From: an uncultured Nitrososphaeria archaeon
GTDB taxonomy: Archaea > Thermoproteota > Nitrososphaeria_A > Caldarchaeales > Wolframiiraptoraceae
DNA length: 64,000 nt
NCBI GenBank assembly: GCA_964655015.1
Contig: CAZZKR010000022.1
Location: 6,583-70,582 of the forward strand
Direction of reading: 5' to 3'
Part shown: in pieces, positions 5,685 to 60,871 of the stretch
Layout: every line of letters starts with the position of its first letter
Position numbering within the stretch: position 1 is the stretch's first letter
Made by a program: the position numbers and the translations under genes
Notes under the pieces: model-generated
Database searches by the model: none
Seen by the model: the letters and a program-made list of their open reading frames with translations, nothing else
What the model was told of the DNA's origin: nothing

Positions 5685-5685
5685 A

Positions 5686-6531: not shown

Positions 6532-6542
6532 AGTAGATGCCC

Positions 6543-40333: not shown

Positions 40334-40912
40334 TTGGTTAAAAAGCATTATATCATGGAGAAGCATATAGTCATTCTGGGTTTTGCGGGCAGTTTAAGAA
40401 AAGACTCATACAACAAAGCGTTACTTCGCGCTGCAGCCGAGTTACTTCCGGAAGGAGCTGAGCTTGAGATTTTTGATATTGAAGGAATCCCCCTTTACAA
40501 TCAAGATTTGGAATATGAACTGCCAGTAAAAGTTAAGGAGTTTAAAGCGAAGATAAGGTCCGCAGACGCAATTCTCGTGGCTACGCCAGAATACAACTAT
40601 TCGATTCCTGGAGTCTTAAAAAATGCTATAGACTGGGCTTCTCGACCACTGGGTGACAATTCTTTTGAGGGTAAAGCCGTAGCCATCATGAGCGCATCCA
40701 TCGGAATGTTGGGAGGCGTCCGCGCTCAATACCATCTTAGACAAGTGTTTGTATCTTTAAATATGTATCCAATAAATAAGCCTGAGGTTATTGTGCCATT
40801 CGCTAAGGAAAAGTTTGATGAAAATGGACGGTTGAAGGACGATGAAACGCGGACCAAAATCCGGGAACTGCTTGAAAATCTCGTGACTTGGGCTAAAAAA
40901 TTAAAGACTTAA
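40334..40912 (+). CDS. NAD(P)H-dependent FMN reductase family protein
   Basis: ILGFAGSLRKDSYN, ATPEYNYSIPGVLKNAIDW. The likely true start is ATG 40355 (MEKHIVIL). Confidence 0.8.
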   Translation: MVKKHYIMEKHIVILGFAGSLRKDSYNKALLRAAAELLPEGAELEIFDIEGIPLYNQDLEYELPVKVKEFKAKIRSADAILVATPEYNYSIPGVLKNAIDWASRPLGDNSFEGKAVAIMSASIGMLGGVRAQYHLRQVFVSLNMYPINKPEVIVPFAKEKFDENGRLKDDETRTKIRELLENLVTWAKKLKT

Positions 40913-40985
40913 ATATCAAAAAATTCTAGCTTTAGGTAACATTTTTATTTTTCTTCTAGACTTTATTTATTTTTAAGGAAATCGT

Positions 40986-41222
40986 ATGGGAGGCAGTTCT
41001 TATAGAAAATTAGATTGCTTGGGGCTTTATTGTCCAGAGCCGGTTTTTAGGACAAGAATGGAGCTTGACAAGATGAAGGTTGGCGAGGTTCTTGAAGTTT
41101 TAGCAGATGATCCTGCTGCAGAAGAAGATATTAAAAGTCTAGTGAAGAATTTGGGACAAGAGATCATAAGCGTAACCAGAAGGGGAAATCAAGTTCAAAT
41201 TCTGATTAAAAAAGTTAAATAA
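40986..41222 (+). CDS. tusA: TusA/SirA-family sulfur carrier
   Basis: LDCLGLYCPEPV (CPxP active-site motif), 78 aa. Confidence 0.8.
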   Translation: MGGSSYRKLDCLGLYCPEPVFRTRMELDKMKVGEVLEVLADDPAAEEDIKSLVKNLGQEIISVTRRGNQVQILIKKVK

Positions 41223-41241
41223 ACGGTCATGAGGTGAAACG

Positions 41242-41610
41242 TTGGCGGAAAAGAAAAAAATTTTGTATATTCAAACAAGCGGAGTTGACACCCCTGAACG
41301 TGCCTATGCCCCGTTCATTTTGGCAACTACAGCAGCCATGATGGGAATCGATGCTACAATATATTTTCTAATAAAGGGTGTAACTATAGTTAAGAAGGGC
41401 GAGGCTGAAAAAATAAAGATGGGTGGTTTTCCATCCTTGAAGGAAGTTATGGATCAAGCGGTCAAGGCTGGAGTTAAACTCATGGTGTGTGAACAGAGTT
41501 GTATGTTGCTTGGCATTCCACGGGGTGACTTCACACCAGAAGCCAAAATAGTAGGCGCAGCGACCTTGAATGATCTGGCCTTAAACGCAGATGCGGTTAT
41601 ATGCTTCTAG
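41242..41610 (+). CDS. DsrE/DsrF-like sulfur-relay family protein (COG2044-type)
   Basis: About 120 aa; ILYIQTSG...P....FILA N-terminus and conserved Cys pair VCEQSC. Confidence 0.65.
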   Translation: MAEKKKILYIQTSGVDTPERAYAPFILATTAAMMGIDATIYFLIKGVTIVKKGEAEKIKMGGFPSLKEVMDQAVKAGVKLMVCEQSCMLLGIPRGDFTPEAKIVGAATLNDLALNADAVICF

Positions 41611-41624
41611 AGGAGGAATTATAA

Positions 41625-42809
41625 ATGTCAACTCCTAAAAAAATTTATATGGATCATGTTGCTGGGAAACCTGTTGATCCCCGCGTTATAGAAGCCATGA
41701 TACCATTCATTAAGGATTTTTACGGTAACCCATCATCGATTCATTCATTTGGATATGAGTCGAAAAAGGCTTTGGAGGAAGCAAGAGCGAAAATTGCCAA
41801 ACTTATAAACGCCGAAAGCCCTGAGTCTATAATTTTCACTTCTGGGGCCACAGAAAGTAACAATATGGCTATCAAAGGTGTCGCGTATAGAAATATAGAT
41901 AAGGGTAAACACGTAATAGCCTCAAGTATCGAACATATGTCGGTAATTAACCCGTGTAAATACTTAAAAACTAAAGGTTTTGATGTGACCTTTCTTCCGG
42001 TAGACAAGTACGGTTTAGTCGACCTCAATAGTTTAGAACGTGAGTTGAGGGAAGAAACGATTCTCGTTTCCATCCAGTATGCTAACAATGAAATAGGAAC
42101 AATTCAACCAATAAGGGAAATAAGTCAAATAGTCCACAGAAAAAACGCATATCTGCACGTGGATGCTACGGCCGCCAATGGACAAATCCCAATAGATGTT
42201 CAAAAAGACGGAATTGACCTTCTAACACTATCTTCCAACGACATGTATGGACCTAAAGGGGTTGGGGCCCTTTATGTTCGTAGCGGAGTACGCATTGAAC
42301 CCATAATCCATGGCGGCGGCCAAGAAAGAGGTTTACGTTCAGGAACAGAAAACGTGCCAGGCATAGTTGGGTTTGGAAAAGCGGCGGAAATAGCTGTTAA
42401 TGAGATGCAAGCCGAAAGTGAAAGGCTTAGCAGGCTTAGAGACAAACTCATTAAAGGCTTACTAGAATCCATACCATACGCTTTCTTGAATGGTCACCCA
42501 ACAAACCGCTTGCCAGATAACGCCGCGGTGAGGTTCAACTTTATAGAAGGCGAATCCATACTATTAAGCCTTGACATGATGGGGGTGGCAGCCTCGTCAG
42601 GCTCTGCCTGCACCGCAAAAACTTTAGAGCCTTCCCACGTACTGCTTGCAATTGGACTGAAACATGAAGAAGCCCACGGTTCAGTACTATTCACCCTTGG
42701 AAGACAAAACACAGAAGACGAAGTAGACTATGTTATTCAAATAATGCCAAACATAGTAAAAAGGTTAAGAGCCATGTCTCCCTTAACGCCTAAGGAGTTG
42801 CTTGGTTGA
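41625..42809 (+). CDS. Cysteine desulfurase (NifS/IscS class)
   Basis: PLP-enzyme layout, SSGSACT active-site Cys loop, HVDA...Q motif. Confidence 0.9.
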   Translation: MSTPKKIYMDHVAGKPVDPRVIEAMIPFIKDFYGNPSSIHSFGYESKKALEEARAKIAKLINAESPESIIFTSGATESNNMAIKGVAYRNIDKGKHVIASSIEHMSVINPCKYLKTKGFDVTFLPVDKYGLVDLNSLERELREETILVSIQYANNEIGTIQPIREISQIVHRKNAYLHVDATAANGQIPIDVQKDGIDLLTLSSNDMYGPKGVGALYVRSGVRIEPIIHGGGQERGLRSGTENVPGIVGFGKAAEIAVNEMQAESERLSRLRDKLIKGLLESIPYAFLNGHPTNRLPDNAAVRFNFIEGESILLSLDMMGVAASSGSACTAKTLEPSHVLLAIGLKHEEAHGSVLFTLGRQNTEDEVDYVIQIMPNIVKRLRAMSPLTPKELLG

Positions 42810-43195
42810 TGTATAGCGAAAAAGTAATGGAACATTTCAGAAATCCCCGAAACATGGGGGAAATCAAAGATGCTGACGGTGTCGGCACAGTCGGAAATCC
42901 TGTTTGCGGAGACATGATGACCATATACATAAAAGTTAAAGATAACCGCATAGAGGACATAAAATTTAAAACCTTTGGCTGCGGCGCCGCAATAGCAACA
43001 AGCAGCATGATAACTGAATTGGCAAAAGGAAAAACTCTGGAAGAAGCGTTAAAAATAACACGTAAGGATGTAGCAGACGCCCTAGAAGGGCTTCCGCCAG
43101 TAAAGATGCACTGCTCAAATCTAGCGGCAGACGCCCTCAAAGCTGCAATTGAAGATTATTACAAAAAACAGAAAGGAAAGGTGGAAAAACAATGA
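42806..43195 (+). CDS. iscU: IscU/NifU-type Fe-S scaffold
   Basis: GNPVCGDMM, FGCGAAIATSS, HCSNLA (three ligand Cys). Confidence 0.9.
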   Translation: MMYSEKVMEHFRNPRNMGEIKDADGVGTVGNPVCGDMMTIYIKVKDNRIEDIKFKTFGCGAAIATSSMITELAKGKTLEEALKITRKDVADALEGLPPVKMHCSNLAADALKAAIEDYYKKQKGKVEKQ

Positions 43196-43358
43196 AAAAA
43201 GAGTTTATTAGGTGCGAGTTCTGTAACATACCGATTCCGTTAGAAACGTGCCAATTAGCAACTTATCGCGTTACTATCAACGGAAAAGAGTACGTTTTTT
43301 GTTGTCAGAAATGCGCTGAAAAGTATCAAAATCTTCAATCAAATAAGCATCAAGAAAA

Positions 43359-43365
<7 letters not shown>
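43192..43365 (+). CDS. Unannotated TRASH/zf-like Cys-rich micro-protein (57 aa)
   Basis: Hand translation: MKKEFIRCEFCNIPIPLETCQLATYRVTINGKEYVFCCQKCAEKYQNLQSNKHQEKW*. The pattern CxxC...CxxxC is TRASH-like. The ATG overlaps the iscU stop (ATGA) and its own end overlaps the next gene's start. Confidence 0.5.
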
Positions 43366-46257
<2,892 letters not shown>

Positions 46258-46357
46258 CTGACTTTATATTTTTAAACAATGTAGCCTCTGAGGTTTACGA
46301 AAATATCATCGAAGAGCGGTACGTCCCTACAAAGTAAATTTCGCCTGATCCTCATTT

Positions 46358-46627
46358 TTATTTTTCAATGATATATTTAACTCTGATGGTTTCGTGTCCA
46401 AGTTCCTTGAAACTTTTGATTTTCATTTTTACATCAATCAATTCCCGCAATTCGTAAATGAAATCTTCAAAATAGTCGACCACTCCGCAAGTCCTACAGA
46501 AACTTCCCTCAAAATCTAACACGAGCTCTCTATCGCTTATCTTAACAAGCTTAGCTTTAGCTTCAGGGCTTCTATATTTGTTGTATTCTTCTATTGCCTT
46601 TAAGACAGAATCCTTAAAACTTAACAT
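46358..46627 (-). CDS. Hypothetical small protein
   Basis: 89-aa ORF with a single CRTC pair; no recognised family. Confidence 0.35.
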   Translation of the reverse strand: MLSFKDSVLKAIEEYNKYRSPEAKAKLVKISDRELVLDFEGSFCRTCGVVDYFEDFIYELRELIDVKMKIKSFKELGHETIRVKYIIEK

Positions 46628-46892: not shown

Positions 46893-48206
46893 TTGCAGAA
46901 TAATCTCCAACCATCTGCTGAAGTATGTGTCAATCGATCGGCGATAAAAACAATATATACTCACTTCGAAAAATCTTTTTTTAAAAGTGAAAAATATAAA
47001 TTAACCTCAGAAATAGGTAAAACATCCTTGGGGGTAAAGGGTACGAAAACTTTAGTTGATGCTAAAACAATTACTGCGATAGACCCCGAATTCCCAAATG
47101 CAATTATAAAGTTGGGAGCGGAGAGGTTTCATAGATGCTTTAATTGTGGCAATTGTACGGCTATCTGCCCGCTGACCCAAGATAAGGCATCTTATCCTAG
47201 GAAGCTTATACGTTACGCCGTTATGGGTTTAGAAGAGAGAGTAACGTCTTCTACTGATCCATGGTTATGCTACTATTGTGGTGAATGTAGCGATTATTGT
47301 CCTAGGGACGCCGACCCTGGAAGTTTTATGATGGCTTTAAGAAGATTGCTCATCCAAAAATACTCGATAGTTTCTAAAGCATTTTTCAATAAAATAGCCG
47401 CTGCGATAACTTGGATAGTTTTAACTATAATAGCTGCTCTAGGTATTTACTTTTTTAGAGGACACTCCCCAAATCTTGAAACTGTTGATTTATCATCTTT
47501 TCTATCAATAGATTTTATACATGATGCCGGACTAGCAGTTGGGGCAGTAGTGGGACTGTTTGCTTTATTGAATCTCATAAGCATGTATCGGAGCATCGCT
47601 AAGGGTATTTCATATTCTTACTCAAAAGTAGAGAGCAGAAATCCTGCGTTGTGGATTAAGAACTTCTTTAAAACCATAATCTACGAAGTCGCTGCACAGT
47701 TAAAATATAGTAAATGTTTAAAGAAAAGTCGATATGTTGCACACTTGGCATTATTCTGGGGCTTCTTAGGTTTATTTGTAGCAACGCTAATAGTCTTCGG
47801 AATAGACTTCTATGGGCTCCAGATATCGAGGGTTGTTCCTTTCGTTATTGGTGTTATATCCGGGGTAGTCATGCTTTACGGCTCTATCTACTTTATTATT
47901 GCAAGATTAAAGAAGAAGGAAACCTACGCAATGTATTCGTATCATACTGATTGGGTCTTTCTAATACTGCTGTTTCTTGCGGGCGTTACTGGATTCTTAC
48001 TGGCAATATTTGTAAAAGTAAATTTGCCCATGGAATCTTACATAACGTATGCAGTGCATTTAATAGTGGTATTTGACTTACTAATTTCTGCCCCATTTAC
48101 TAAATTTGCCCATGCAATTTATAGACCTCTAGCCCTCTGGATTGATAGTACAGTAAGAGAATCCCCGATTATAGGAGGCATAATGGGAGGTGGTAGGGGT
48201 GGCTAA
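46893..48206 (+). CDS. QmoC-like protein: HdrC-like 2x[4Fe-4S] domain fused to a NarI/HdrE-like membrane cytochrome-b-type domain
   Basis: CFNCGNCTAICP and CYYCGECSDYCP, then about 6 hydrophobic helices with conserved His residues, ending FTKFAHAIYRP. The first roughly 45 codons have no ATG. A TTG at 47028 downstream of a TATA-like AAATATAAATT is a plausible true start, giving about 392 aa. Confidence 0.7.
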   Translation: MQNNLQPSAEVCVNRSAIKTIYTHFEKSFFKSEKYKLTSEIGKTSLGVKGTKTLVDAKTITAIDPEFPNAIIKLGAERFHRCFNCGNCTAICPLTQDKASYPRKLIRYAVMGLEERVTSSTDPWLCYYCGECSDYCPRDADPGSFMMALRRLLIQKYSIVSKAFFNKIAAAITWIVLTIIAALGIYFFRGHSPNLETVDLSSFLSIDFIHDAGLAVGAVVGLFALLNLISMYRSIAKGISYSYSKVESRNPALWIKNFFKTIIYEVAAQLKYSKCLKKSRYVAHLALFWGFLGLFVATLIVFGIDFYGLQISRVVPFVIGVISGVVMLYGSIYFIIARLKKKETYAMYSYHTDWVFLILLFLAGVTGFLLAIFVKVNLPMESYITYAVHLIVVFDLLISAPFTKFAHAIYRPLALWIDSTVRESPIIGGIMGGGRGG

Positions 48207-49476
48207 ACCAGTCCTAGTTATTGGTGGCGGTATTGCGGGTATACAAGCATCGCTCGACCTTGCCGATCAAGGTGTTAAGGTCTACCTAGTAGAGAAGCTG
48301 CCTAGTATAGGTGGTAAGATGGCTCGCCTTGACAAGACTTTCCCAACCTTAGACTGTGCCTCATGCATTCTTACACCTAAGATGGTTTCGGTTGCGAGGC
48401 ATCCTAACATAGAACTTCTAACATACTCTGAAGTAGTGGAGGTTAAGGGCTCGGCTGGAGACTTCCATGTAAAAGTGTTGAAGAAGCCAAGGTATGTCGA
48501 TGAAGATAAGTGTATAGGATGTGGGGAATGTATTGCTAAGTGTCCATCCAAAGTTCCGGATGAATTTAACATGGGTATGAGTCAGAGAAAAGCGATATAC
48601 TTCCTATTCCCGCAAGCCGTTCCGCTTAAAGCAACCATAGATAAAGAACATTGCCTCTACTTTACTAAGAACATATGCCGTGTATGTGAAAGGATCTGCC
48701 CAACCAAAGCAGTAAACTTTGAACAGAAACCTGAAACCCTAGAACTTAATGTAGCTTCCATAATAATTGCTACAGGATACGAATTGATGGATCCACATCT
48801 CGCAGCAACATATGGTTATGGAAAATATTCAAACGTATATCTATCGTTAGAGTTTGAAAGGCTTGTATCATCCACTGGACCGACTGGAGGAGAGATCGTG
48901 AGGAGGTCAGATAATAAGCATCCGAAGAGCATAGCTTTCATACAATGCGTATGTTCCAGAGACGTTAAGATAAACCCGAACTGTTCAGCTTTCTGTTGCA
49001 TGGCTTCAGTTAAGCATGCAATCCTAGCAAAAGAACATTTGCCAGAAGTCGACTGCACAATATTCTACATGGATCTTAGAGCATTCGGGAAAGGATACCA
49101 AGAATTCTACAATAGAGCCATGAAAGAGTTTGGTATAAAGTTCATCAGAGCTAAACCCGCAAAGATCGAAGAAGACCCTGAAACCAAGGACTTAATAATA
49201 ACCTACGATGATACATTAACAAGCATTAAGAGAACTATGAGGGTAGATATGGTCGTATTAGCTGTGGGTGTTAAACCCGTTTACCCAGAAGTGTTGCCTT
49301 TAAAAATCGGAGAGGATGGGTACGTATGTTTAAAGGACCCAATCATGGAATCTATAGCATCAACTATAGACGGGATATACGTTGTAGGTGTAGCAGCGGG
49401 CGCAAAGGACATCCCAGACTCTGTTGTACAAGCGGGTTCAGCAGCAGCTAAAGCATCTATATTGGCTGGGGTGTAA
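48190..49476 (+). CDS. QmoA-like short HdrA-family flavoprotein
   Basis: VIGGGIAGIQAS FAD motif, TFPTLDCASCILTPK, inserted CIGCGECIAKCP. It lacks the HdrA N-terminal and C-terminal ferredoxin domains. The likely start is GTG 48202. Confidence 0.8.
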   Translation: MVGVAKPVLVIGGGIAGIQASLDLADQGVKVYLVEKLPSIGGKMARLDKTFPTLDCASCILTPKMVSVARHPNIELLTYSEVVEVKGSAGDFHVKVLKKPRYVDEDKCIGCGECIAKCPSKVPDEFNMGMSQRKAIYFLFPQAVPLKATIDKEHCLYFTKNICRVCERICPTKAVNFEQKPETLELNVASIIIATGYELMDPHLAATYGYGKYSNVYLSLEFERLVSSTGPTGGEIVRRSDNKHPKSIAFIQCVCSRDVKINPNCSAFCCMASVKHAILAKEHLPEVDCTIFYMDLRAFGKGYQEFYNRAMKEFGIKFIRAKPAKIEEDPETKDLIITYDDTLTSIKRTMRVDMVVLAVGVKPVYPEVLPLKIGEDGYVCLKDPIMESIASTIDGIYVVGVAAGAKDIPDSVVQAGSAAAKASILAGV

Positions 49477-49479
49477 AAC

Positions 49480-51492
49480 ATGAGTGAAGAACCTAGGATA
49501 GGAGTGTACATATGCCATTGTGGATTAAACATTGCAGGTACGGTCAATATAAAAGAAGTAGTTGAATACGCAAAGAACCTTCCAAACGTCGTAGAGGCGA
49601 GAGATTATGTCTTTATGTGTTCTGCTCCAGGTCAGGACATCATTAAAGAAGGCATAAAGAAGCATAATCTGAACAGAGTTGTAGTAGCAGCTTGCTCTCC
49701 AACTATGCATGAACCTACTTTTAGAAATGCGCTGGCTGAAGCTGGCTTGAACCCGTACCTGCTAGAAATGGCGAACATCAGAGAACAATGTTCTTGGGTT
49801 CACTCGGACAAGGAGGCGGCAACCGCTAAAGCTAAGCTATTGGTGAGAATGGCTGTGGCTAAAGCATCATTACTTGAACCACTTAAAGATATAAAATTCA
49901 AAGTCAATAAGAACGTATTGATTATAGGAGGAGGGGTTGCGGGACTCTCTGCTGCTAGGGATCTAGCCGCCAAAGGTTTCAAAGTCTACCTTATTGAAAG
50001 GAAGCCTGTAATTGGTGGGAACACTGCTAGACTTGGGAGGCTCGTACATACAAAATTAAAAGGAATAGATGTTGTGAAGGAATTATCAAAGGACGTCATA
50101 AACAACCCAAACATCCAAATATATGTAAACACTGAGCTAACAAACGTCGACGGCTCTGTTGGAGATTTTAAGATTAAGCTGATAAAGAATCCGAGGTACG
50201 TCAATGAAAACTGCAACCTGTGTGGTGAATGTGTTAAGGTATGTCCAGTCGAGGTTCCAAATGAATACGAGTTCGGCTTAACAAAAAGGAAAGCGATCTA
50301 TCTACCATATAAAGGAGCCTATCCACCACTCTACGTAATAGACTCAGAGAACTGTACAAGATGTCTTGAATGCGTTAAAGTATGTCCAACGCATGCTATA
50401 AACTTAGATCAGAAACCTGAGGAAATAGAATTAAGAGTTGGAGCAATAATAGTTGCCGCAGGACACGAACCATACGAACCGCCAGTCGGAGAATTCGGGT
50501 ACGGTTTATCGAATAGAATAATAACGCTATTCCAGCTTGAAAGGCTGCTTGATACAGAAGGTCCAACAAACGGTGAGTTAAAGATAAATGGTATACAACC
50601 CAAAAACATCGTATTCATAATGTGTGTGGGATCGCTTAATACAACTCCAAACGCATACCCGTACTGCTCCAGAATGTGCTGTGCATCGACGATAAAGAAT
50701 GCATTAATAATCAAAGAGAAATATCCAGAAGCAAACATATACATCCTACACAAAGACATAAGAACGTACAATAGGCTGGACGAGCAGCTTTACATTAAAG
50801 CTGGAGAAGGTCTGATCAGGTTTGCAAGATACAGAGAAGCTCCAAACGTCGTCCGCCTCTTTGAGATAATGGGTAGTGAAAAATTGCCTACCGAACTCCT
50901 TAAAAAATTCCCCCTCCTCGTCAATCCTGATGGGAGCATCAATGTAAGATTCTTCGAAGAAACAATTCAAGAAGAAATATCTATCCCCGCCGACCTAGTA
51001 GTGTTATCAGTTGGTATGAAACCTCCAAAAGATATTGATAAAGTTAGGACGCTAACAAAGGTAGGATGCGGTCCAGAAGGATTCCTTAAGGAAGCACACT
51101 TAAAGCTTAGGCCGGTTGAAGCAACTACTGATGGGGTATATCTTGCGGGGACTGTGACTGGACCGAAAAACATAGCCGAGTCAATAGAATCTGGAAGCGC
51201 TGCAGCCTCTAAAGCATTAGGGCTTCTTACAAAAGAAGAAGTTAAAGTAGAACCGCTAATTGCTGTAGTAAATGAAGAAATATGCAGTGGCTGCGCAATA
51301 TGCATAGGAATGTGTCCATACAACGCGATAAGATTAAAGGTTCAAGAAAACGTTAGGGTTGCAGAAGTGGACCCGGCACTATGTAAAGGGTGTGGAACAT
51401 GCGTAGCTTCATGTCCAACGGGTGCAATGCAACAGTATAGCTTCAAAGACAATCAATTGAAGAACCAACTCGTAGCAGCTTTTATCGGGTGA
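49480..51492 (+). CDS. hdrA: Full-length HdrA-family (QmoB-like) FAD/FeS protein
   Basis: N-terminal IGVYICHCGLNIAG...VVVAACSP domain, IIGGGVAGLSAA, CNLCGECVKVCP, C-terminal CSGCAICIGMCP and CKGCGTCVASCP. Confidence 0.85.
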   Translation: MSEEPRIGVYICHCGLNIAGTVNIKEVVEYAKNLPNVVEARDYVFMCSAPGQDIIKEGIKKHNLNRVVVAACSPTMHEPTFRNALAEAGLNPYLLEMANIREQCSWVHSDKEAATAKAKLLVRMAVAKASLLEPLKDIKFKVNKNVLIIGGGVAGLSAARDLAAKGFKVYLIERKPVIGGNTARLGRLVHTKLKGIDVVKELSKDVINNPNIQIYVNTELTNVDGSVGDFKIKLIKNPRYVNENCNLCGECVKVCPVEVPNEYEFGLTKRKAIYLPYKGAYPPLYVIDSENCTRCLECVKVCPTHAINLDQKPEEIELRVGAIIVAAGHEPYEPPVGEFGYGLSNRIITLFQLERLLDTEGPTNGELKINGIQPKNIVFIMCVGSLNTTPNAYPYCSRMCCASTIKNALIIKEKYPEANIYILHKDIRTYNRLDEQLYIKAGEGLIRFARYREAPNVVRLFEIMGSEKLPTELLKKFPLLVNPDGSINVRFFEETIQEEISIPADLVVLSVGMKPPKDIDKVRTLTKVGCGPEGFLKEAHLKLRPVEATTDGVYLAGTVTGPKNIAESIESGSAAASKALGLLTKEEVKVEPLIAVVNEEICSGCAICIGMCPYNAIRLKVQENVRVAEVDPALCKGCGTCVASCPTGAMQQYSFKDNQLKNQLVAAFIG

Positions 51493-51550
51493 GTTACATG
51501 AAGATTAAAAACACATATATTGTAATAATAGGTTGGTGTTGTGGACATAG

Positions 51551-51988
51551 GTGATTCAGATGAGCCAAAACTTTGAACCGAAAATAATCGCTTTTTTGTG
51601 TAACTGGTGTTCTTATGCTGCTCTCGACCTCGCAGGTACAAGCCGAATGAAGTATCCTCCAAACTTTTTAGTGATTAGAGTTATGTGCTCGGGCAGAGTT
51701 GATCCACAATTCATTCTTGAAGCTTTCAGAAGAGGTGCAGACGGAGTGCTTGTTGCGGGATGCCATCCGGGAGACTGCCACTATATTGAAGGTAACATTA
51801 AAACGTTGAGGAGGATGACGCTTCTAAAGAGGATGCTTGAAGAATTTGGGATAGAGAAGGAGAGGTTTAGGCTTGAATGGATCTCCGCAGCAGAAGCGGA
51901 TAAATTTGTTAAAGTGGCTAACGAAATGTTTGAGAAGATAAAGTCTCTAGGTCCGTTGAAACTAAAAGAGGTGAATACTCATGAATAA
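51551..51988 (+). CDS. mvhD: MvhD-like hydrogenase delta subunit
   Basis: IIAFLCNWCSYAALDLAG...VMCSGRV...AGCHPGDCHY. The probable start is ATG 51560, behind a GGTGAT Shine-Dalgarno sequence. Confidence 0.85.
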   Translation: MIQMSQNFEPKIIAFLCNWCSYAALDLAGTSRMKYPPNFLVIRVMCSGRVDPQFILEAFRRGADGVLVAGCHPGDCHYIEGNIKTLRRMTLLKRMLEEFGIEKERFRLEWISAAEADKFVKVANEMFEKIKSLGPLKLKEVNTHE

Positions 51989-52961
51989 ACCTAAGATAGC
52001 TCTATACTGGTGTGCAAGTTGTGGAGGATGCGAAGAAGCACAAGTAGACCTTGCAGAAAAGATCCTAGACCTTGTAAACCTTGTAGACATAGTATTCTGG
52101 CCAGTCGCCATGGATTACAAGATCGAAGACGTTGAGAAGCTTCCAGATGGATCGATTACTGCCAGCTTCATAAACGGTGGAATCAGGCTTAGCGAACACG
52201 AATACGTGGTAAAACTGCTAAGAAAGAAATCCAAGTTAGTCGTAGCCTATGGAGCATGCTCAGCGTGGGGCGGAGTCCCAGGCCTTGCAAACCTCTACAG
52301 TAGAGAAGAAATACTGAAATACGTATATCATGAAGCACCAACAGTAGAAAATCCTCAGAAGATACAACCACAATTAAAAATTAAAGCAGAGGAGGGGACA
52401 ACGCTTGAGCTACCTGAAGTCCTCCCGCGCCTCCTCCCACTAGACCTTGTAGTAGACGTGGATTATTATATTCCAGGATGTCCCCCAACACCAGAAGTAA
52501 CATGGAAAGCAATAGAAACTCTGCTGTCCGGAAATCTTCCAGCTAAAGGCTCCGTGCTTGGAGCATTAGATAAATCGCTCTGCTACGAGTGTCCATTAAA
52601 CGAGACCAAGCCTGAAAAAGTACTAATCAAAGATATCAAGAGACCGCATGAAGTAATCGCCGACCCATCCAAATGTTTATTAACACAAGGACTAATGTGC
52701 CTTGGACCAGTAACCCGTGGAGGATGTAGTGCACTCTGCATAAAAGCAGCCATGCCATGCACAGGATGTTTCGGCCCACTCAACGAAGTAATGGACTATG
52801 GTGGAAAAGCTGCATCGTACTTCGCAAGTATAGTGGATTATAGCGATGAAGAAGAAATTAAGAAAGTGTTGGGCAAGATTCTGGATCCGATGGGAATATT
52901 TTATAGATACTCCCTGCCAGCCTCAAGGCTTAGAGGGAAGATAACGGTAACGAGGAGGTGA
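51981..52961 (+). CDS. mvhG: [NiFe]-hydrogenase small subunit, MvhG-like
   Basis: YWCASCGGCEEA proximal-cluster motif, GACS.WGG, PGCPP, and distal Cys clusters. Confidence 0.85.
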   Translation: MNKPKIALYWCASCGGCEEAQVDLAEKILDLVNLVDIVFWPVAMDYKIEDVEKLPDGSITASFINGGIRLSEHEYVVKLLRKKSKLVVAYGACSAWGGVPGLANLYSREEILKYVYHEAPTVENPQKIQPQLKIKAEEGTTLELPEVLPRLLPLDLVVDVDYYIPGCPPTPEVTWKAIETLLSGNLPAKGSVLGALDKSLCYECPLNETKPEKVLIKDIKRPHEVIADPSKCLLTQGLMCLGPVTRGGCSALCIKAAMPCTGCFGPLNEVMDYGGKAASYFASIVDYSDEEEIKKVLGKILDPMGIFYRYSLPASRLRGKITVTRR

Positions 52962-54436
52962 GCAAGATGAAAGAAGTGGTAATAAACCCCATCACGAGGC
53001 TTGAAGGGCACGGCAAGATCGTGGTAATACTCGACGATGCTGGGAACTGTGTTAAAGCATACCTCCAAGTACCTGAACTCAGAGGTTTCGAAACATTCGC
53101 CGTAGGAAGACATGCGGAAGACATGCCGCAGATAACTTCTAGGATATGCGGCGTATGCCCGACAGCCCACCACATGGCCTCAACAAAAACTCTAGACGAC
53201 CTCTACAAGGTAGAGCCGCCGGAACCTGCAAAGAAGATTAGAGAAATGTTCTACAACATATTCATGCTTGAAGACCATGCACTCCACTTCTACATCCTAG
53301 CAGGACCAGACTTCATAGTAGGACCGAAGGCATCCAAAGAGGAGAGAAACGTCGTAGGAGTAATCAAGAAGGTTGGAACGGAAGTCGGTTTAAGAGTAAT
53401 CCAGACTAGGAAGAAGCTTAGAAAATTAATGGAGATAATCGGCGGAAAAACAATACATCCAGTCCTCGGCCTACCAGGAGGGATATCAAAACCGCTATCT
53501 CAAGAAGCGGTTGAAACAGCAAGGAAAGTATCGGAAGAAGCGGTACAATTCGCAGAGTTCACATACAAGATCTTCAAAGATGTAGTCTTAGCAAACAAAG
53601 AATACGTAGACCTCATAACAAGCGAAGCGTACACGCATAGGACATACTACATGGGTTTAGTGGATGAAAAGAACAGAGTAAACTTCTACGATGGAAAGAT
53701 CAGAGTAGTCTCACCAAGAGGGATAGAACACGCAAAATTCGACATCCATCAATACCTGGATTACATAGCAGAACACGTAGAACCATGGACGTACATAAAA
53801 TTCCCGTACCTCAAGAAGATAGGATGGAAAGGATTCATAGACGGAGAAGATAGCGGAGTGATGAGTGTAGCACCGCTAGCAAGACTCAACGCAGCAGATG
53901 GAATGGCAACACCGAAAGCACAGGAAGCATATGAAGAAATGTACGAAACACTGGGAGGAAAACCAATCCACCACACGCTAGCAAACCACTGGGCAAGAGT
54001 AATAGAGATAATCTATGCGGCAGAAAGATTCAGAGAATTAGCAAATGACCCAGACATAGAAAGCAAAGAAGTAAGAAACCTGCCAACAGCAACACCAGAA
54101 GAAGGTATAGGAGTAGTAGAAGCACCAAGAGGGACACTAATACATCACTACCAAACAGACCAAAACGGAGTAATCAAGAAAGCAAACCTGCTAGTAGCAA
54201 CACAGCACAACGCGGCGAGAATAGCGCTCTCGGTAGACAAAGCGGCAAGAAGTCTCGTCAAAGCGGGACAGATAGACCAAGGAATACTAAACATGGTAGA
54301 GATGGCGTTCAGAGCATATGACCCATGTCACGCCTGCGGGACCCATTCGCTACCAGGTGGTATTTCAGTCAAGTTCTATCTATACAGCATGAATGGTCAA
54401 CTTTTGAGAATCGTCAATTCCGAGGATTTGGTTTAA
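52958..54436 (+). CDS. mvhA: [NiFe]-hydrogenase large subunit, MvhA-like
   Basis: RLEGHGK, RICGVCPTAHH (L1) and DPCHACGTH (L5), followed by a C-terminal extension of about 29 aa. Confidence 0.9.
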   Translation: MSKMKEVVINPITRLEGHGKIVVILDDAGNCVKAYLQVPELRGFETFAVGRHAEDMPQITSRICGVCPTAHHMASTKTLDDLYKVEPPEPAKKIREMFYNIFMLEDHALHFYILAGPDFIVGPKASKEERNVVGVIKKVGTEVGLRVIQTRKKLRKLMEIIGGKTIHPVLGLPGGISKPLSQEAVETARKVSEEAVQFAEFTYKIFKDVVLANKEYVDLITSEAYTHRTYYMGLVDEKNRVNFYDGKIRVVSPRGIEHAKFDIHQYLDYIAEHVEPWTYIKFPYLKKIGWKGFIDGEDSGVMSVAPLARLNAADGMATPKAQEAYEEMYETLGGKPIHHTLANHWARVIEIIYAAERFRELANDPDIESKEVRNLPTATPEEGIGVVEAPRGTLIHHYQTDQNGVIKKANLLVATQHNAARIALSVDKAARSLVKAGQIDQGILNMVEMAFRAYDPCHACGTHSLPGGISVKFYLYSMNGQLLRIVNSEDLV

Positions 54437-54698
54437 TTTATTACATCAAATATTTATCGGATAACGGATTGGCGAGGTTTCTGTTTTATGTATTGTTGGA
54501 GTTAATTTAAATTCTTTCAAAGACATTTTAGAAGAGTAGGCCGACAATTGTTGTTATAGCTGCATATAAGTAATAGCAGGAAAAATTTAGCATCCACGAA
54601 ATTCTCTAGGGGGCCATAAAGATGCATTTAATGATTCGCAGTTAGTCTTATTTTTTAAAATTTAAGATTTTAATGTAATAGAACAGGCTACAAGATCC

Positions 54699-55991
54699 TT
54701 AGGCAGGTAAACCAACTTTAAGCAAAAAGTCTATGAGCCACTGAGGCTTAACTGGAAACCAGACGATAAACCATGCTACTTGTACTGCAGTCATAGAGAA
54801 TAGTATAATCTTTGAGAATTTGTCTTCTCCGAGTATGTATGGTAACCCTATAGCTATTATCGGTACAGTTGAGTAGAAGTAGAACGGGTATACCCATCTA
54901 TGGAGTATGTATGCAATAGGGAAGAAGACTAGATAGGTTAGAGAGATCCATGAAAGTATTAACATCTCAGTGTCTGGAAACGCTTTACTCCTCAATATGA
55001 GGATGGATGAATAGATTGAGAACGCAAATATAACCCAGGTCGTCCACCATAAAGGTGTCTGCATGCCGTAATATGCTATTGGATGATATTCTTTACCATC
55101 AATAGTTACCTTTACGACAAAGTATGATTCACGGGAGAAAGGCATGATCGGATTAGCCCAAGTAATGGGCATGTGGACTACATCCCCCTCTTTAAATGTT
55201 AAGGTAGAATGGTAGTTTAGTATATAGTCGAGATGCTCAAAAGGTGTAGAATAAGCATTTAAAGAATAATCGTAGATAGCTAACCCAGCTAACAGGACTA
55301 ATAGAGAAATTATTAACGTCTTCTCAACGATCTTTAACATCTCTTTAATCGAATTTATGAATCTCTTCTGCGAATAAGACGTTTTCAAGAAATAGTATAG
55401 TAGTAGAGCAGCAAATATGAAGAAACTCGAGATCTTGCATAGTAATGCAAAACCAATCGCGACGCCTGAATAGAAATATCTCCTCTTAAGGAAAAATATT
55501 GCCGATAATAGGCTGAACATCATAGCAGGGGCATCTAGGATTGCCATCGAGCTGATGTTAAATGAAGTAACATCACAAGCAAAGAGTATTGCTGAACATA
55601 GAGCTAAAACATTGTTCTTTAATACTATGTGTGCAAGTTTACCCAGTAAGTATACCGTTATTGCTCCCGATAACGCTATGAAAACCCTCCACCCTATTGG
55701 GTTATCTCCAAACAATAGTATCCCTAATATGATTAATGCTTTAGAGAGGGGTGGGTGCTCATTATTCACCGCCATTCCCATAAGCATCTTGCGAGCAGCC
55801 GGGACATAGTGAGCTTCATCAAAGATTAATGCGCAATCTGTTGATAAAGGTGGATTAGTACAGTTGGAAGGTGGGAGTTTAGGCCAAGGTTCATTTATTA
55901 TCAATAATTTCAATACAAGGATGATAATAGACAAGATTGCTAACTGGACGTCTAGCTTACTTAGATGTCTTCTTAAGAAGGCTATGCTCAT
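54699..55991 (-). CDS. GT-C fold membrane glycosyltransferase-like protein (GT39/PMT_2-like)
   Basis: About 11 TM helices. The first loop carries FDEAHYVPAARKM, resembling the DE motif of PMT/ArnT-type lipid-carrier-dependent glycosyltransferases. Confidence 0.6.
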   Translation of the reverse strand: MSIAFLRRHLSKLDVQLAILSIIILVLKLLIINEPWPKLPPSNCTNPPLSTDCALIFDEAHYVPAARKMLMGMAVNNEHPPLSKALIILGILLFGDNPIGWRVFIALSGAITVYLLGKLAHIVLKNNVLALCSAILFACDVTSFNISSMAILDAPAMMFSLLSAIFFLKRRYFYSGVAIGFALLCKISSFFIFAALLLYYFLKTSYSQKRFINSIKEMLKIVEKTLIISLLVLLAGLAIYDYSLNAYSTPFEHLDYILNYHSTLTFKEGDVVHMPITWANPIMPFSRESYFVVKVTIDGKEYHPIAYYGMQTPLWWTTWVIFAFSIYSSILILRSKAFPDTEMLILSWISLTYLVFFPIAYILHRWVYPFYFYSTVPIIAIGLPYILGEDKFSKIILFSMTAVQVAWFIVWFPVKPQWLIDFLLKVGLPA

Positions 55992-57115
55992 AAAATCTTC
56001 ACCAAGCTTGCTAAAGGTTTAATCAATTCTTTAAAGATCATCTTTTTCCCGGAAGCTCTAAGATACGTCTCAGCCAACATGTATAATAATGCCACAGCTC
56101 TTATTAATGCAAGATTTTGAGGTAATGTCCCAGGCATTAGCGGATCCTTCTCCATAAACCATGTAAGAATTATTCCTACATTAGCACCTTCAAGAATATA
56201 GAATGTTGGTTGAATTCTACCAATTATTGCTAAGAAAGGAAGAATAAATATAACCATCTGTGGAGTGAAAACATAGTTTGTTAAAAGGAAGACTGATAGT
56301 AACATAAAGGATCTCTCATAGAGGTTGCCGACATTGCTTAGGTAGATTTTCAGTAAACCATAAGCCATGAGAAGAGCGCTGAATAGCTTAGCTGTATCCC
56401 ATGAACCTCTTGAAGGAAATAGGTAAACGAACCAAGCATTCTCAAGCCCCCAATTAAGATGATAAAGGTATGTACCTTTAAAGAAGCTTGGATTAAGTAT
56501 CTGTAATCCTATATTAACAATCGCAATAGGCATAAAAACATAAAATAGATAATTTAACCTACTCTTCCAATCCTTTAAGCTAACAAGCAGCATCGGTAGA
56601 AGTATAATATTGACTAGTTTTACGAGGGTTGTGGCTGAGAATAGCAGTGCTGAAATCTTATACTTGCCCTTCTCAAAAAACATTAAAGATAAGATTAAGA
56701 GTGCAGCGAAGACTACATCGAAGTTATAATTTAGATAGACGATCATTGAAGGTGAAAATATAAGGAAGACAAAGATGTAGATTGGTGGGACATTCTTTTC
56801 ACGCATTATCTTGAAGACTGTTAAAACAAGGAGAATATAAAATAAGTAGAGTATGGTGGAGAAAGCATTATAGTATGGGATCATTTCTCCTCTACCAATA
56901 ACTGATGAGACATAGGTTATCAATCCTGCCAATGGAGGATACTCAAAACTTTCTTGTATGTATGGTATCCTAACATCCATTACTAGAGGTCTATACCAGA
57001 AAGAGATAATGTCTGAATAGATATTCCCTCCAATCTTTGGATGGTGAAGCAAATACGATGTAATAAAGGATAATGTAGATGCGATGATGATTATCTTCCT
57101 CAACACTTTTTTCAT
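55988..57115 (-). CDS. Polytopic membrane protein, DUF2029/GT87-like putative glycosyltransferase
   Basis: FEYPPLAGL loop motif after TM1; about 10 TM; 4-nt overlap with the downstream GT39-like gene. Confidence 0.45.
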   Translation of the reverse strand: MKKVLRKIIIIASTLSFITSYLLHHPKIGGNIYSDIISFWYRPLVMDVRIPYIQESFEYPPLAGLITYVSSVIGRGEMIPYYNAFSTILYLFYILLVLTVFKIMREKNVPPIYIFVFLIFSPSMIVYLNYNFDVVFAALLILSLMFFEKGKYKISALLFSATTLVKLVNIILLPMLLVSLKDWKSRLNYLFYVFMPIAIVNIGLQILNPSFFKGTYLYHLNWGLENAWFVYLFPSRGSWDTAKLFSALLMAYGLLKIYLSNVGNLYERSFMLLSVFLLTNYVFTPQMVIFILPFLAIIGRIQPTFYILEGANVGIILTWFMEKDPLMPGTLPQNLALIRAVALLYMLAETYLRASGKKMIFKELIKPLASLVKIL

Positions 57116-57157
57116 AAATTTCTCAACCTCTTACCCTAAATACTAAAACTTTGGATG

Positions 57158-57172
57158 ATTTTAAATTGTATA
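57158..57172 (+). repeat. Copy 1 of the exact 15-nt direct repeat ATTTTAAATTGTATA (TATA-box-like)
   Basis: Read directly from the sequence; the second copy is at 57316-57330. Confidence 0.6.
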
Positions 57173-57315
57173 AACATAGCTAATCGCGCAGTAATGGTTT
57201 ATAAGACGAATTTAAACATTCAAGCAAGAAATGAATGTGACGACATTGACTTTAAGTTTACGTAACCAGCGGAACCTCAAAGCTTTAATGAATATTGTTG
57301 GCACTTTAAGTGTTC

Positions 57316-57330
57316 ATTTTAAATTGTATA
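57316..57330 (+). repeat. Copy 2 of the exact 15-nt direct repeat ATTTTAAATTGTATA
   Basis: Read directly from the sequence, 158 bp after copy 1. It is followed by a degenerate segment of about 43 nt that resembles 57268-57310. Confidence 0.6.
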
Positions 57331-57495
57331 TACGACCGGAACCCCCAGAGCATAACTAATGATTGGAACTTTGAAATTTTTAATAATAAAGAGACCAAAA
57401 TAGCTATTTTTAAATTAACTTTTCAACCTTCTCAAAAAACGCTACGTTTATATATAAGATAAATAAAACAAAATCTAAGTATGCGGTGTTTATAA

Positions 57496-58509
57496 ATGAA
57501 AATAAATCCTAAGGCTGTGTTCTTCTTAGTAGTGTTTCTTGGTTTCTTAACTATAGGTGCGGCTCAGCAAATAATAATAACAACAACTACGACTACGCTC
57601 ATAACAATACCTGGAACCACTTATGTTACAACTCTTCCAGGTGGGGAAATTACAGCAACGATAGTCATACCAAAGTATACATTGATAGCCGTAGAAAAAC
57701 GTCCAGACCAAACGTGTTCAATAGTATTAAAACCCATAAAAACTGAGGGAGTAATAACCATCCCCGGCACTACTGTTACTATTCCTGGAACAACTGTGCA
57801 AACTGTATTTACTGAGCCTACGATCAAGTATTCTATAACTTATGAAGAAGATGGGGTAACAACTACTACGGGATATACGTACATAGAGCTTGTTACCACA
57901 ATAGCTGGACAAACATTCTCTATACCAATACCTCTATATGCAGAGATCATAGAAAGCTGCCAGACAATACAAGTCGTACAGGAAGTAACGATTATCATGG
58001 GAAGTGTACCTGCCACATTCTACTATGCATACCCAGAGATGACATATTCATTCGAAGGAGCAACCTTTACTATAGAAGAGATGACAGAAGAATTGCCAAC
58101 AACTATAACTACTACGACTATTACACCTGGAACAACATATACTGAGTCAACAGTTTTTCCTGGAACGACTATGGCCACCACAATTACTCTGCCATCTACT
58201 ACCGTTACAGTAACCGAGCCTGAAAAGACAGTAACGTCTACGATAACATATGTGACAACCATTACTAGACCGACTACGGAGACTACGCCTACAACACCTA
58301 CACCAACCACAACCACTCAAACTACTCCGACCACTGTAACTACACCGACACCCACCCCAACTCTAACAGAGACTGAGACGACTAGACCAGGAATGGAATT
58401 TGCAGGGTTACCTCTTGACATACTTGCAGGAATAATAGCAACCGTAGCAATCATAGCAATAGTCGTAGCTGCTCTGCTGTTTAGGAGAGGTGCAGGCAGG
58501 ATTAGATAA
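57496..58509 (+). CDS. Thr-rich secreted surface protein with PGTT repeats and a C-terminal TM anchor (PGF-CTERM-like layout)
   Basis: Signal-like N-terminus (VFFLVVFLGFLTIGAA), repeated I(T)IPGTT(Y/V) units, a TTETTPTTPTPTTTTQTTPTTVTTPTPTPT linker, then RPGMEFAGL plus a hydrophobic helix plus RRGAGRIR. Confidence 0.7.
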   Translation: MKINPKAVFFLVVFLGFLTIGAAQQIIITTTTTTLITIPGTTYVTTLPGGEITATIVIPKYTLIAVEKRPDQTCSIVLKPIKTEGVITIPGTTVTIPGTTVQTVFTEPTIKYSITYEEDGVTTTTGYTYIELVTTIAGQTFSIPIPLYAEIIESCQTIQVVQEVTIIMGSVPATFYYAYPEMTYSFEGATFTIEEMTEELPTTITTTTITPGTTYTESTVFPGTTMATTITLPSTTVTVTEPEKTVTSTITYVTTITRPTTETTPTTPTPTTTTQTTPTTVTTPTPTPTLTETETTRPGMEFAGLPLDILAGIIATVAIIAIVVAALLFRRGAGRIR

Positions 58510-58532
58510 CCTCCTTATGTCGCAACTATTAT

Positions 58533-58560
58533 AACCTATTCTCTTTTTATGAGATAGGTT
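58533..58560. terminator. Hairpin between convergent genes (10 bp stem with one bulge, T-rich loop)
   Basis: AACCTAT(T)CTC-TTTTTAT-GAGATAGGTT, read directly. It lies between the ends of 57496..58509(+) and 58607..59563(-). Confidence 0.35.
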
Positions 58561-58606
58561 TCGAGTATGATAAAAAGTGTTTAAAACGCTCACTTTTTCA
58601 CGACTA

Positions 58607-59611: not shown

Positions 59612-60112
<501 letters not shown>

Positions 60113-60529
60113 TTAAGCGAATTTGTCCCCTTCCTTTAGCCAACGATAAATAGTTTTTAAAGGCACGCCCAACTCCTCTGACATTTGCTTAGCGTTATAA
60201 CCCATGCGCCTTAACTCTTGCATCTGCCTCTTCTTCAACCTTCTTTCGGCCTTATTGAATTTGGCTTTATTCTCGAAAATTATGCGGTCCTCTTTGCCGA
60301 AGAGTGAAAGGGCCAACGTGAAGGCTTTAATGTAGTTATATTCCCTGTTAATGTAACCTATTAACTTGATACGATAATCTTCGGCAATATATTCCCTTAA
60401 CTGATTTAGCACCTCCTCTACCATATCGAAGCTTATGGAAGGCCCGAACTCGACCTCGACCGTCTTACTCTCGGACTTAACCTCAATCGAGTAACCTTTG
60501 TTCATTTCCGGTCGCCTCTTTTTTATCAC
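60113..60529 (-). CDS. Hypothetical protein with a C-terminal helix-turn-helix (resolvase/Hin-type HTH-like)
   Basis: C-terminus [32 protein letters not shown]. The N-terminal 90 aa match no family I recognise. Confidence 0.5.
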
Positions 60530-60871
60530 AGTGTCCGTATTTTCAGACTTATAAACTTTCCCATTTTGAGATTTCTTTATAATGCGAAAAGTTTATATAC
60601 TGTCGTTCTCATATTGTAAAAATGGAGAAATGAGAAACGGGGGTGGTCCCTATGGTGGTAGAAAAGGTATTCAAGCTAAAAATGATTAAGTACAAAATAA
60701 CTGATCGCGGACCTCCGATAATGATCTAAAACATCCCCTTTTTATTTTTTCTTTTTTGTTCGCTTTTTTATTAAAATGGGCGCTAATAATTCACGAACTC
60801 TAACTCTCTTGCAAAAACCAAGCAACACGGGTCTCATAATTGTTCGAATAATGTTTTTAAAAGCAAAACAG

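Follow-up and report, generated by a model that had tools for sequence, protein, structure and literature searches.

A qmoCA-hdrA-mvhDGA gene cluster of a Wolframiiraptoraceae archaeon and its possible role in coupling H2 oxidation to quinone and ferredoxin reduction

The window analyzed here is a stretch of 64,000 nucleotides (nt) from an uncultured archaeon (contig CAZZKR010000022.1 of assembly GCA_964655015.1, positions 6,583 to 70,582 of the forward strand), and all coordinates without a locus name refer to it. At 47028-54436, on the + strand, it carries six co-directional genes, adjacent or overlapping, in the order qmoC-qmoA-hdrA-mvhD-mvhG-mvhA. We propose, with a confidence only a little above even (about 0.55), that their products form one membrane-anchored complex which would oxidize H2 and deliver the electrons to both a membrane quinone and ferredoxin by flavin-based bifurcation. 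The observations that carry this proposal are direct ones, namely the parts list, the synteny, the ligand residues and the complementarity of the two HdrA-type flavoproteins, in which one partner keeps the Cys197-equivalent ligand and the other the N-terminal cluster domain. Domains were called by Pfam and NCBIfam profile searches of the six translated open reading frames (ORFs), and the DNA upstream and downstream was inspected by eye, the host being archaeal. The cluster has the following features.

46990-47002, + strand: TATA-like element AAAAATATAAATT, 26-38 nt 5' of the probable qmoC start
47028-48206, + strand: qmoC-like gene, 392 amino acids (aa) from TTG 47028; the longest ORF begins at 46893 (437 aa)
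47127-47348, + strand: iron-sulfur (FeS), HdrC-like domain of QmoC, as used for domain-wise identities
47388-48152, + strand: membrane (cytochrome b) domain of QmoC, as used for domain-wise identities
48190-49476, + strand: qmoA-like gene, 425-428 aa; HdrA-type flavoprotein of the thioredoxin-reductase fold with an inserted ferredoxin domain
49480-51492, + strand: full-length hdrA, 670 aa; QmoB-like, without a fused MvhD domain
51551-51988, + strand: mvhD, [2Fe-2S] adaptor subunit of the FlpD family (PF02662, 196 bits; VhuD, 151 bits)
51981-52961, + strand: mvhG, [NiFe]-hydrogenase small subunit (PF01058; VhuG, 215 bits)
52958-54436, + strand: mvhA, [NiFe]-hydrogenase large subunit, group 3c-like (VhuA, 404.8 bits)
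54437-54500, + strand: T-rich spacer after the mvhA stop codon, its sequence read by eye

The second and third genes encode flavoproteins that complement one another. The match of the 670-aa HdrA to the HdrA profile spans positions 1-640, and its alignment with the HdrA of the methanogen enzyme (5odc_A, 665 bits) runs over the full length; the protein has an N-terminal Cys domain, a flavin adenine dinucleotide (FAD) domain, an inserted ferredoxin domain and a C-terminal 2x[4Fe-4S] domain, and thus answers to the full-length HdrA with N-terminal Cys domain, FAD fold and C-terminal di-cluster that an earlier note on this DNA had described. The HdrA2 profile is covered jointly by this protein (positions 1-640) and by MvhD (643-774). 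QmoA, on the other hand, matches the HdrA profile at positions 137-559 only and 5odc_A at residues 140-563 only (476.8 bits), and is without the N-terminal cluster domain. Each HdrA of the methanogen enzyme relies on Cys197 of the other to complete its N-terminal [4Fe-4S] cluster. Cys56 and Cys59 of QmoA align with Cys194 and Cys197 of 5odc_A, whereas the 670-aa HdrA has Lys and Asp in their place. The same division holds elsewhere, in that both cysteines are kept, without the N-domain, by 180 of 182 QmoA-type proteins, while 161 of the 173 N-domain-bearing HdrA/QmoB-type proteins lack both. Because this complementarity is general across loci, QmoA and HdrA are most likely the two halves of an obligate, asymmetric heterodimer, in which electrons would have a single entry from Mvh and a single exit to ferredoxin. 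Tandem HdrA genes with reciprocal loss have been described before, and heterodimers were inferred from them; in the same work the N-terminal HdrA cluster was placed on the ferredoxin branch (Chadwick et al., 2022, PMC9012536). The earlier note had called the 428-aa product a truncated, QmoA-like HdrA. The family assignment stands, but we rejected the view of a decayed HdrA, since the protein is the conserved, Cys197-bearing partner of a complementary pair.

In QmoC, an HdrC-type domain that carries two [4Fe-4S] motifs is fused to a cytochrome b domain of the NarI/HdrE type with six helices, which is the QmoC-type architecture that the note had read from the sequence. Its translation carries CFNCGNCTAICP, CYYCGECSDYCP and FTKFAHAIYRP; six hydrophobic helices are predicted in the membrane part; the Pfam matches are a 4Fe-4S dicluster domain and Nitrate_red_gam, and the best NCBIfam match is qmoC NF038018 (226.6 bits, profile positions 2-358 of 360). 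The N-domain matches HdrC 7bkb_C with an E-value of 1e-18. When an AlphaFold2 model of QmoC (predicted local distance difference test score, 88.5) was searched with Foldseek, the best PDB folds were HdrC and NarI, with a probability of ~1 and E-values of 0.02-0.18, the NarI match being taken as support only. Among 84 homologues, the eight cluster cysteines as well as His284, His389 and His407 (numbered on the 437-aa ORF) are kept in 99-100%, and His210 in 74%. These conserved histidines are candidate heme ligands, as would befit the membrane protein supposed in the note.

The two domains of QmoC differ in their relationships. The FeS domain is 85% identical in amino acids to the Geocrenenecus copy (locus L007) and 78% to an Archaeoglobaceae copy (L015), and together with the other five genes falls into a range of 70-87% identity to these two loci, whereas the membrane domain is only 28-30% identical to theirs (28% to L015). 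It is closer to the QmoC of canonical mvhD-qmoA-qmoB-qmoC loci (40-46%, L002-L006) and to P0012, from a dsrE-tusA-mvhD-qmoABC locus (63%), while the membrane domain of the L007/L015 type is nearer to Archaeoglobales QmoC. In the DNA, similarity to L007 covers 47128-47346, then ceases, and resumes at 48185, five bases before the qmoA start. Metagenome clusters with ~91% identical QmoA include both membrane types, their QmoC being 76-80% identical to that of the window in some and ~45% in others. Judged by these identities, QmoC is chimeric, with a membrane domain of other origin than the rest of the cluster, exchanged by recombination at the domain boundary, since both types occur among clusters with nearly the same QmoA. 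A neighbor-joining tree of QmoC is rough, and the argument rests on the domain-wise identities; on the same grounds we rejected whole-gene orthology of qmoC across clusters, the FeS domain alone being orthologous. That the FeS domain tracks its cluster while the membrane domain is exchangeable is what would be expected if docking takes place at the FeS domain. The chimeric QmoC is one of the additions of this work to a known cluster type.

The last three genes encode MvhD, MvhG and MvhA, an assignment already made in the earlier note and borne out by the profile matches and by both Ni-Fe motifs in the translation. MvhA carries the metal-ligand motifs RICGVCPTAHH and DPCHACGTH and keeps an uncleaved C-terminal extension past the latter. 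Its PDB matches are 7t2r_D (372 bits) and 5odc_F, an MvhA and the best match to a named hydrogenase (369 bits), ahead of the group 3d protein 5xf9_D (299 bits) and of groups 3a/3b (~110-115 bits). By best similarity, which is to the Mvh structures of group 3c, MvhA is group 3c-like, in keeping with the methanogen-type hydrogenase that had been supposed.

The arrangement of the genes agrees, on the ORF map, with the six co-directional, closely spaced or overlapping ORFs noted before. qmoC and qmoA overlap by 17 nt, and 3 nt separate qmoA from hdrA; the widest gap of the operon (58-67 nt) lies between hdrA and mvhD. mvhD and mvhG overlap by 8 nt. For mvhG and mvhA the overlap is 4 nt, but it turns into a gap of 5 nt if one takes the start of the gene caller, which places qmoA at 48199, mvhD at 51560 and mvhA at 52967. 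This spacing is compatible with one transcript. The first ORF had been given as 46893-48206. It exists at that length, but its most likely start is TTG 47028 rather than 46893, because DNA homology with relatives begins there, the TATA-like AAAAATATAAATT precedes it and homologues are 384-385 aa long. AAAAATATAAATT is kept in L001 although the rest of the upstream DNA has diverged; it may be the archaeal promoter from which the operon is transcribed, either without a leader or with a short one. At the other end, the T-rich spacer probably marks the end of the operon and is a putative terminator, since the gene downstream of mvhA is convergent on the opposite strand.

We scanned one genome per species with QmoC and Joint Genome Institute metagenomes with QmoA, and mapped the six window proteins onto the loci by tblastn. 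The same six-gene order was found in more than 25 loci of Caldarchaeales, Archaeoglobaceae, Fervidicoccaceae and unclassified metagenome contigs. They comprise L001 (a Nitrososphaeria metagenome-assembled genome, MAG), L007 (Candidatus Geocrenenecus huangii, Wolframiiraptoraceae), L015 (an Archaeoglobaceae MAG), some 20 metagenome contigs (L087-L109, QmoA 59-98% identical, several of them cut by contig ends), and L168, L169 (a Fervidicoccaceae MAG) and L170. In L015 the order is the same and the identities to the window are 81% for QmoA, 70% for HdrA, 81% for MvhD, 80% for MvhG and 82% for MvhA. Because the gene order recurs in so many loci with differing flanks, the six genes are a conserved module and not a chance neighborhood. 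Elsewhere it commonly follows hypE and precedes the gene of a HycI-type protease, and hypCDEF or nikR are sometimes present as well. Such hypE genes (with hypD/hypF or hypCDEF) and HycI-type proteases lie at 6468-7511 and 15115-15591 in L007, at 4883-9919 and 17226-17702 in L015, and at 10186-14027 in L168.

Other arrangements of these genes were also met. A looser linkage of Mvh and Qmo genes occurs in some bacterial loci (L066, L070, L072 and L080), and most other QmoC homologues stand in the canonical qmoA-qmoB-qmoC order, in many phyla. Of 58 canonical qmoABC-type loci (L002-L080), 39 have a TusA gene on the strand of qmoA and no more than 2.5 kb upstream of it, and 14 have DsrE there; an mvhD-like gene often stands between TusA/DsrE and qmoA, as in L167 (2168-7939). 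By their record titles, the canonical loci belong to Chloroflexota, Bacteroidota, Planctomycetota, Aminicenantes, Bathyarchaeota, Heimdallarchaeota and others, and in the literature we found no paper that explains the association. Sediment metagenomes hold a further variant (L112-L153, for example L114, L125 and L149) with two or three tandem qmoA-hdrA-mvhD units, short HdrC-like ORFs and sometimes mvhGA, in which QmoA is ~50% identical to that of the window.

Directly upstream of the cluster lies a 6.3-kb block (40088-46354) with genes for a flavin mononucleotide (FMN) reductase, TusA, DsrE, a NifS-like protein, NifU and a two-subunit 2-oxoacid:ferredoxin oxidoreductase (OorAB). The earlier note had drawn the oxidoreductase and the TusA/DsrE relay into its interpretation, and this link did not survive comparison. 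The block is absent from L087, a relative with 92-96% nucleotide identity; L091 (87-90% identical) has in its place, directly upstream of qmoC, a DsrE-like gene, TusA and a flavoprotein of the sulfide:quinone oxidoreductase/flavocytochrome c sulfide dehydrogenase type; and the Oor and TusA/DsrE block is not in the flanks of the other clusters examined, of which L007 and L015 carry hyp genes. The upstream genes are a strain-specific insertion outside the conserved system, and a functional link to OorAB, TusA, DsrE, NifS and NifU as a conserved feature was rejected on the insertion/deletion differences to L087 and L091. Between OorB and qmoC, an 89-aa ORF without a Pfam match (46358-46627, - strand) has a counterpart of 90% identity in L087. 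On the downstream side, L091 lacks 54443-58606, a segment with genes for two glycosyltransferases (PMT_2, GT87) and an ORF of 337 aa that has no Pfam match; there, a radical-SAM gene directly follows mvhA. The GC content at third codon positions is 0.30-0.45 for the genes in 40.3-58.5 kb and 0.46-0.52 elsewhere in the window; the cluster and both flanking insertions look compositionally foreign.

No gene for a CCG-domain protein (PF02754; HdrB/HdrD) was found among the precomputed Pfam hits of the called genes at ~95-61500 or in the last two large ORFs, toward the 3' end of the window, as the earlier note had claimed. Likewise, there is none in the scanned flanking ORFs of L007 and L015 or among the called genes of L168-L170, and the Pfam lists of the window genes contain no apr, sat or dsr genes.

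From these parts we infer the assembly into one complex, the quinone as acceptor, flavin bifurcation and the physiological direction. MvhA and MvhG, as a group 3c-type [NiFe] hydrogenase, would oxidize H2, and the electrons would enter the full-length HdrA from MvhD, first at its C-terminal ferredoxin domain and then at its FAD. In the asymmetric HdrA/QmoA heterodimer, QmoA would provide the Cys197-equivalent ligand to the N-terminal [4Fe-4S] cluster of HdrA. The electron pair would be split at the flavin, the low-potential electron reaching ferredoxin (Fd) by way of the N-terminal cluster and the inserted ferredoxin domain, and the high-potential electron passing through the HdrC-like di-cluster domain of QmoC and two b hemes to the membrane quinone. 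Overall, this would give 2 H2 + quinone + 2 Fd(ox) -> quinol + 2 Fd(red) + 2 H+, reversible in principle, with the quinone in the role held by CoM-S-S-CoB and HdrB in the MvhADG-HdrABC complex of methanogens. Such a replacement of the heterodisulfide as high-potential acceptor is plausible and fits the parts list. The potentials are ~-414 mV for H2, ~-75 mV for menaquinone and ~-450 to -500 mV for ferredoxin, and the split should therefore be exergonic, about as with the heterodisulfide. The interpretation of the earlier note was of this kind, and its domains, the lack of a CCG protein in the genes checked, the layout as one operon and the similarity of MvhA to group 3c all hold, whereas its link to the upstream genes does not.

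Several points weigh against this proposal. The window shows neither the quinone type of the host nor the presence of a quinone. The QmoC score of 226.6 bits is below the curated equivalog cut-off of 300 bits of NF038018, and the Foldseek match of QmoC to NarI has weak E-values (0.09-0.18). An hdrB or hdrD could lie elsewhere in the host genome, the CCG search having covered the window. The hyp genes and the maturation protease that adjoin the cluster in relatives are absent from the window, and the hydrogenase activity therefore depends on genes outside the window. Finally, QmoA may have a role beyond the donation of Cys197, and a further soluble partner is possible because QmoA docks adenosine 5'-phosphosulfate (APS) reductase in sulfate reducers.

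The activity of the cluster could also be read in a few other ways. First, H2 and the quinone pool could be co-substrates of a reaction in which the Qmo part serves a sulfur-linked, soluble acceptor or donor. Candidates for this partner would be DsrC, APS reductase, an unlinked HdrB/HdrD, or a persulfide or thiosulfonate bound to TusA/DsrE. This corresponds to the three-partner confurcation model for QmoABC, in which a hydrogenase was suggested as the missing third partner and QmoA docks AprAB (Ramos et al., 2012, PMC3333476). TusA near qmoA in 39 of the 58 canonical loci, the sulfur-related genes just 5' of qmoC in the close relative L091, the TusA-DsrE pair of the window itself (5.4 kb upstream) and an earlier reading of an Aigarchaeota Mvh:Hdr cluster as reducing DsrC all speak for it. 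However, most of the six-gene clusters adjoin hypE upstream and not TusA/DsrE, L087 has neither gene, the window genes checked include no apr, dsr or CCG gene, and none of the six proteins has an evident catalytic site for sulfur chemistry, all of which makes this alternative unlikely.

Second, the complex could be a plain, non-bifurcating H2:quinone oxidoreductase, that is, a QmoC-anchored uptake hydrogenase in which HdrA and QmoA would be a wire and ferredoxin no substrate. The NarI-type domain does make QmoC a typical quinone-side anchor, electron transfer from H2 to menaquinone alone is strongly exergonic at textbook potentials, and ferredoxin binding is shown by none of the analyses. We nevertheless consider it decidedly improbable, given that the N-terminal cluster, completed by Cys59 of QmoA, is on the ferredoxin branch (PMC9012536) and that HdrA retains all the domains of the bifurcating methanogen enzyme (665 bits to 5odc_A). 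Moreover, two flavoproteins kept in more than 25 loci would be costly for a mere wire.

Third, the system might work mainly in reverse in a fermenter, where reduced ferredoxin from 2-oxoacid or aldehyde oxidoreductases and quinol would be confurcated to H2 as a means of reductant disposal. The reversibility, in principle, of group 3c enzymes and HdrA modules favors this possibility, as do the description of Wolframiiraptoraceae as anaerobic, fermentative and ferredoxin-centered and the two 2-oxoacid:ferredoxin oxidoreductases of the window. It is harder to reconcile with our estimate, from textbook potentials, that the mean of ~-75 and ~-500 mV is ~-290 mV, so that a very low H2 pressure would be needed; with the status of the OorAB link as a strain-specific insertion; with the reading of the Methanoglobus cluster as H2-oxidizing; or with the fact that no source of quinol is evident. 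We regard it as quite improbable. Finally, it is very improbable that two unrelated systems, a QmoC/QmoA pair and an HdrA-MvhDGA hydrogenase, merely stand side by side, as the widest gap (between hdrA and mvhD) and the separate occurrence of canonical Qmo and Mvh-Hdr elsewhere might suggest, since more than 25 loci from different phyla keep the six-gene order while their flanks differ, qmoC and qmoA overlap, only 3 nt separate qmoA from hdrA, and the Cys197/N-domain complementarity ties qmoA to hdrA across the supposed boundary.

If the bifurcating complex is assumed, a wider and much more tentative view can be taken. The copies in Archaeoglobaceae, Caldarchaeales and Fervidicoccaceae are 60-87% identical in unrelated genomic contexts. 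The cluster might be a self-contained, laterally mobile H2:quinone/ferredoxin bifurcating module that has spread between archaeal phyla, its cytochrome b domain swapped by recombination while the FeS docking domain was kept, perhaps to match the quinone of the host; in Wolframiiraptoraceae, hitherto described as fermenters, it would be an unrecognized H2-linked, quinone-dependent route of ferredoxin reduction and energy conservation. The wider tie of Qmo to TusA/DsrE, if true, would add a sulfur-linked role to such a mobile module.

We assign the host, a hot-spring archaeon, to Candidatus Terraquivivens of the Wolframiiraptoraceae (Caldarchaeales or 'Aigarchaeota'; NCBI phylum Nitrososphaerota), as five housekeeping proteins of the window fall into clusters of at least 90% identity with proteins of Candidatus Terraquivivens yellowstonensis, and the contig carries the archaeal markers Topo VI, AglB, Pelota and archaellin genes. 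The paper that defines the family describes anaerobic, fermentative, ferredoxin-centered organisms with a membrane-bound group 4 hydrogenase, and its main text does not mention hdr, qmo, mvh or quinone. At 9478-11999 (- strand) the window has a second 2-oxoacid:ferredoxin oxidoreductase, made up of a 634-aa fused ferredoxin and thiamine pyrophosphate (TPP) subunit and a pyruvate:ferredoxin oxidoreductase (POR) gamma-type subunit; the host is therefore rich in enzymes that reduce ferredoxin. Methanogenesis genes are absent from the window. Farther downstream (59724-60504 and 60871-60945), beside tRNA-Thr(GGT), an AAA ATPase gene appears to be split into three short called genes (49, 86 and 130 aa) and may be a pseudogene.

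The cluster type and the hypothesis on its function are already in print for Methanoglobus, and the core finding is not original. For Candidatus Methanoglobus nevadensis, a 'fascinating gene cluster' of Mvh subunits, two HdrA homologues and a QmoC-HdrC fusion was reported, together with speculation on electron flow among H2, ferredoxin and menaquinone (Buessecker et al., 2023, bioRxiv 10.1101/2022.12.01.518715). In the cultured Candidatus M. hypatiae the same cluster is highly expressed, at 995-2,431 reads per kilobase per million mapped reads, and H2 bifurcation to menaquinone and ferredoxin was proposed (Lynes et al., 2024, bioRxiv 10.1101/2023.09.08.556235). An Aigarchaeota hdr-mvh cluster was noted in 2018 and read there as HdrABC reducing DsrC. 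The window shares with the Methanoglobus cluster MvhA, MvhG and MvhD, the two HdrA homologues, the QmoC-HdrC fusion, the lack of HdrB in the genes checked and the function proposed; at the sequence level, the comparison was made through L015 as a stand-in for the published sequences (70-82% identity in five of the six proteins). It differs from Methanoglobus in its Wolframiiraptoraceae host and in having no methanogenesis gene in the window, and from L015 in the other type of QmoC membrane domain (28% identity) and in hypE and the maturation protease not being adjacent. New here are the Ca. Terraquivivens host, the chimeric QmoC and the strain-specific nature of the upstream insertion, with the heterodimer signature as a useful addition.

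With the methanogen MvhADG-HdrABC complex (PDB 5ODC), the window cluster has in common the MvhA, MvhG, MvhD and HdrA modules, an HdrC-like domain at the N-terminus of QmoC and, presumably, the logic of flavin-based bifurcation. Unlike that complex, it is without HdrB, with its CCG domains and non-cubane clusters, and so has no disulfide-reducing site; its HdrC is fused to a cytochrome b, so that the complex would be membrane-bound rather than soluble; and the functions of Cys197 and the N-domain, united in the HdrA homodimer, would be split over a QmoA/HdrA heterodimer. The likeness to the QmoABC of sulfate reducers and Chlorobi (Pires, 2003; Ramos, 2012, PMC3333476) lies in the architecture of QmoC, in QmoA as a short HdrA, in the QmoB-like long HdrA plus MvhD and, presumably, in the quinone link. 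Here, however, the order is C-A-B and not A-B-C, a hydrogenase is encoded in the operon, aprBA/sat are not nearby, MvhD is a separate gene where QmoB has an MvhD-like C-terminal domain, QmoC falls below the equivalog cut-off, and QmoA and HdrA are closer to methanogen HdrA. The Qmo part of the window may be of the 'type II' described by Neukirchen et al. (2023).

The tandem or fused HdrA pairs of anaerobic methanotrophic archaea show the same reciprocal distribution of N-terminal domain and Cys197 (Chadwick et al., 2022, PMC9012536). Other partner modules are described there, whereas the pair of the window stands with Mvh and the QmoC cytochrome b. A functional analogue is the VhtGAC and HdrDE system of Methanosarcina, in which H2 oxidation feeds a membrane carrier through a b-type cytochrome; it differs in its extracytoplasmic group 1 hydrogenase, in methanophenazine as the carrier, in the CCG-containing HdrD, and in having no flavoprotein and no bifurcation. 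To our knowledge, no membrane-bound, flavin-based bifurcating hydrogenase with the quinone pool as its high-potential sink has been characterized biochemically, and the present cluster type is an attractive candidate for one; a tractable source for purification should exist because the module is widespread. The comparative data suggest three testable design rules for such an enzyme, namely that QmoA and HdrA form an obligate heterodimer, that QmoC docks through its conserved FeS domain and that its membrane domain can be exchanged. If our proposal is correct, organisms outside the methanogens and sulfate reducers could reduce ferredoxin with H2 and would need no heterodisulfide for it.

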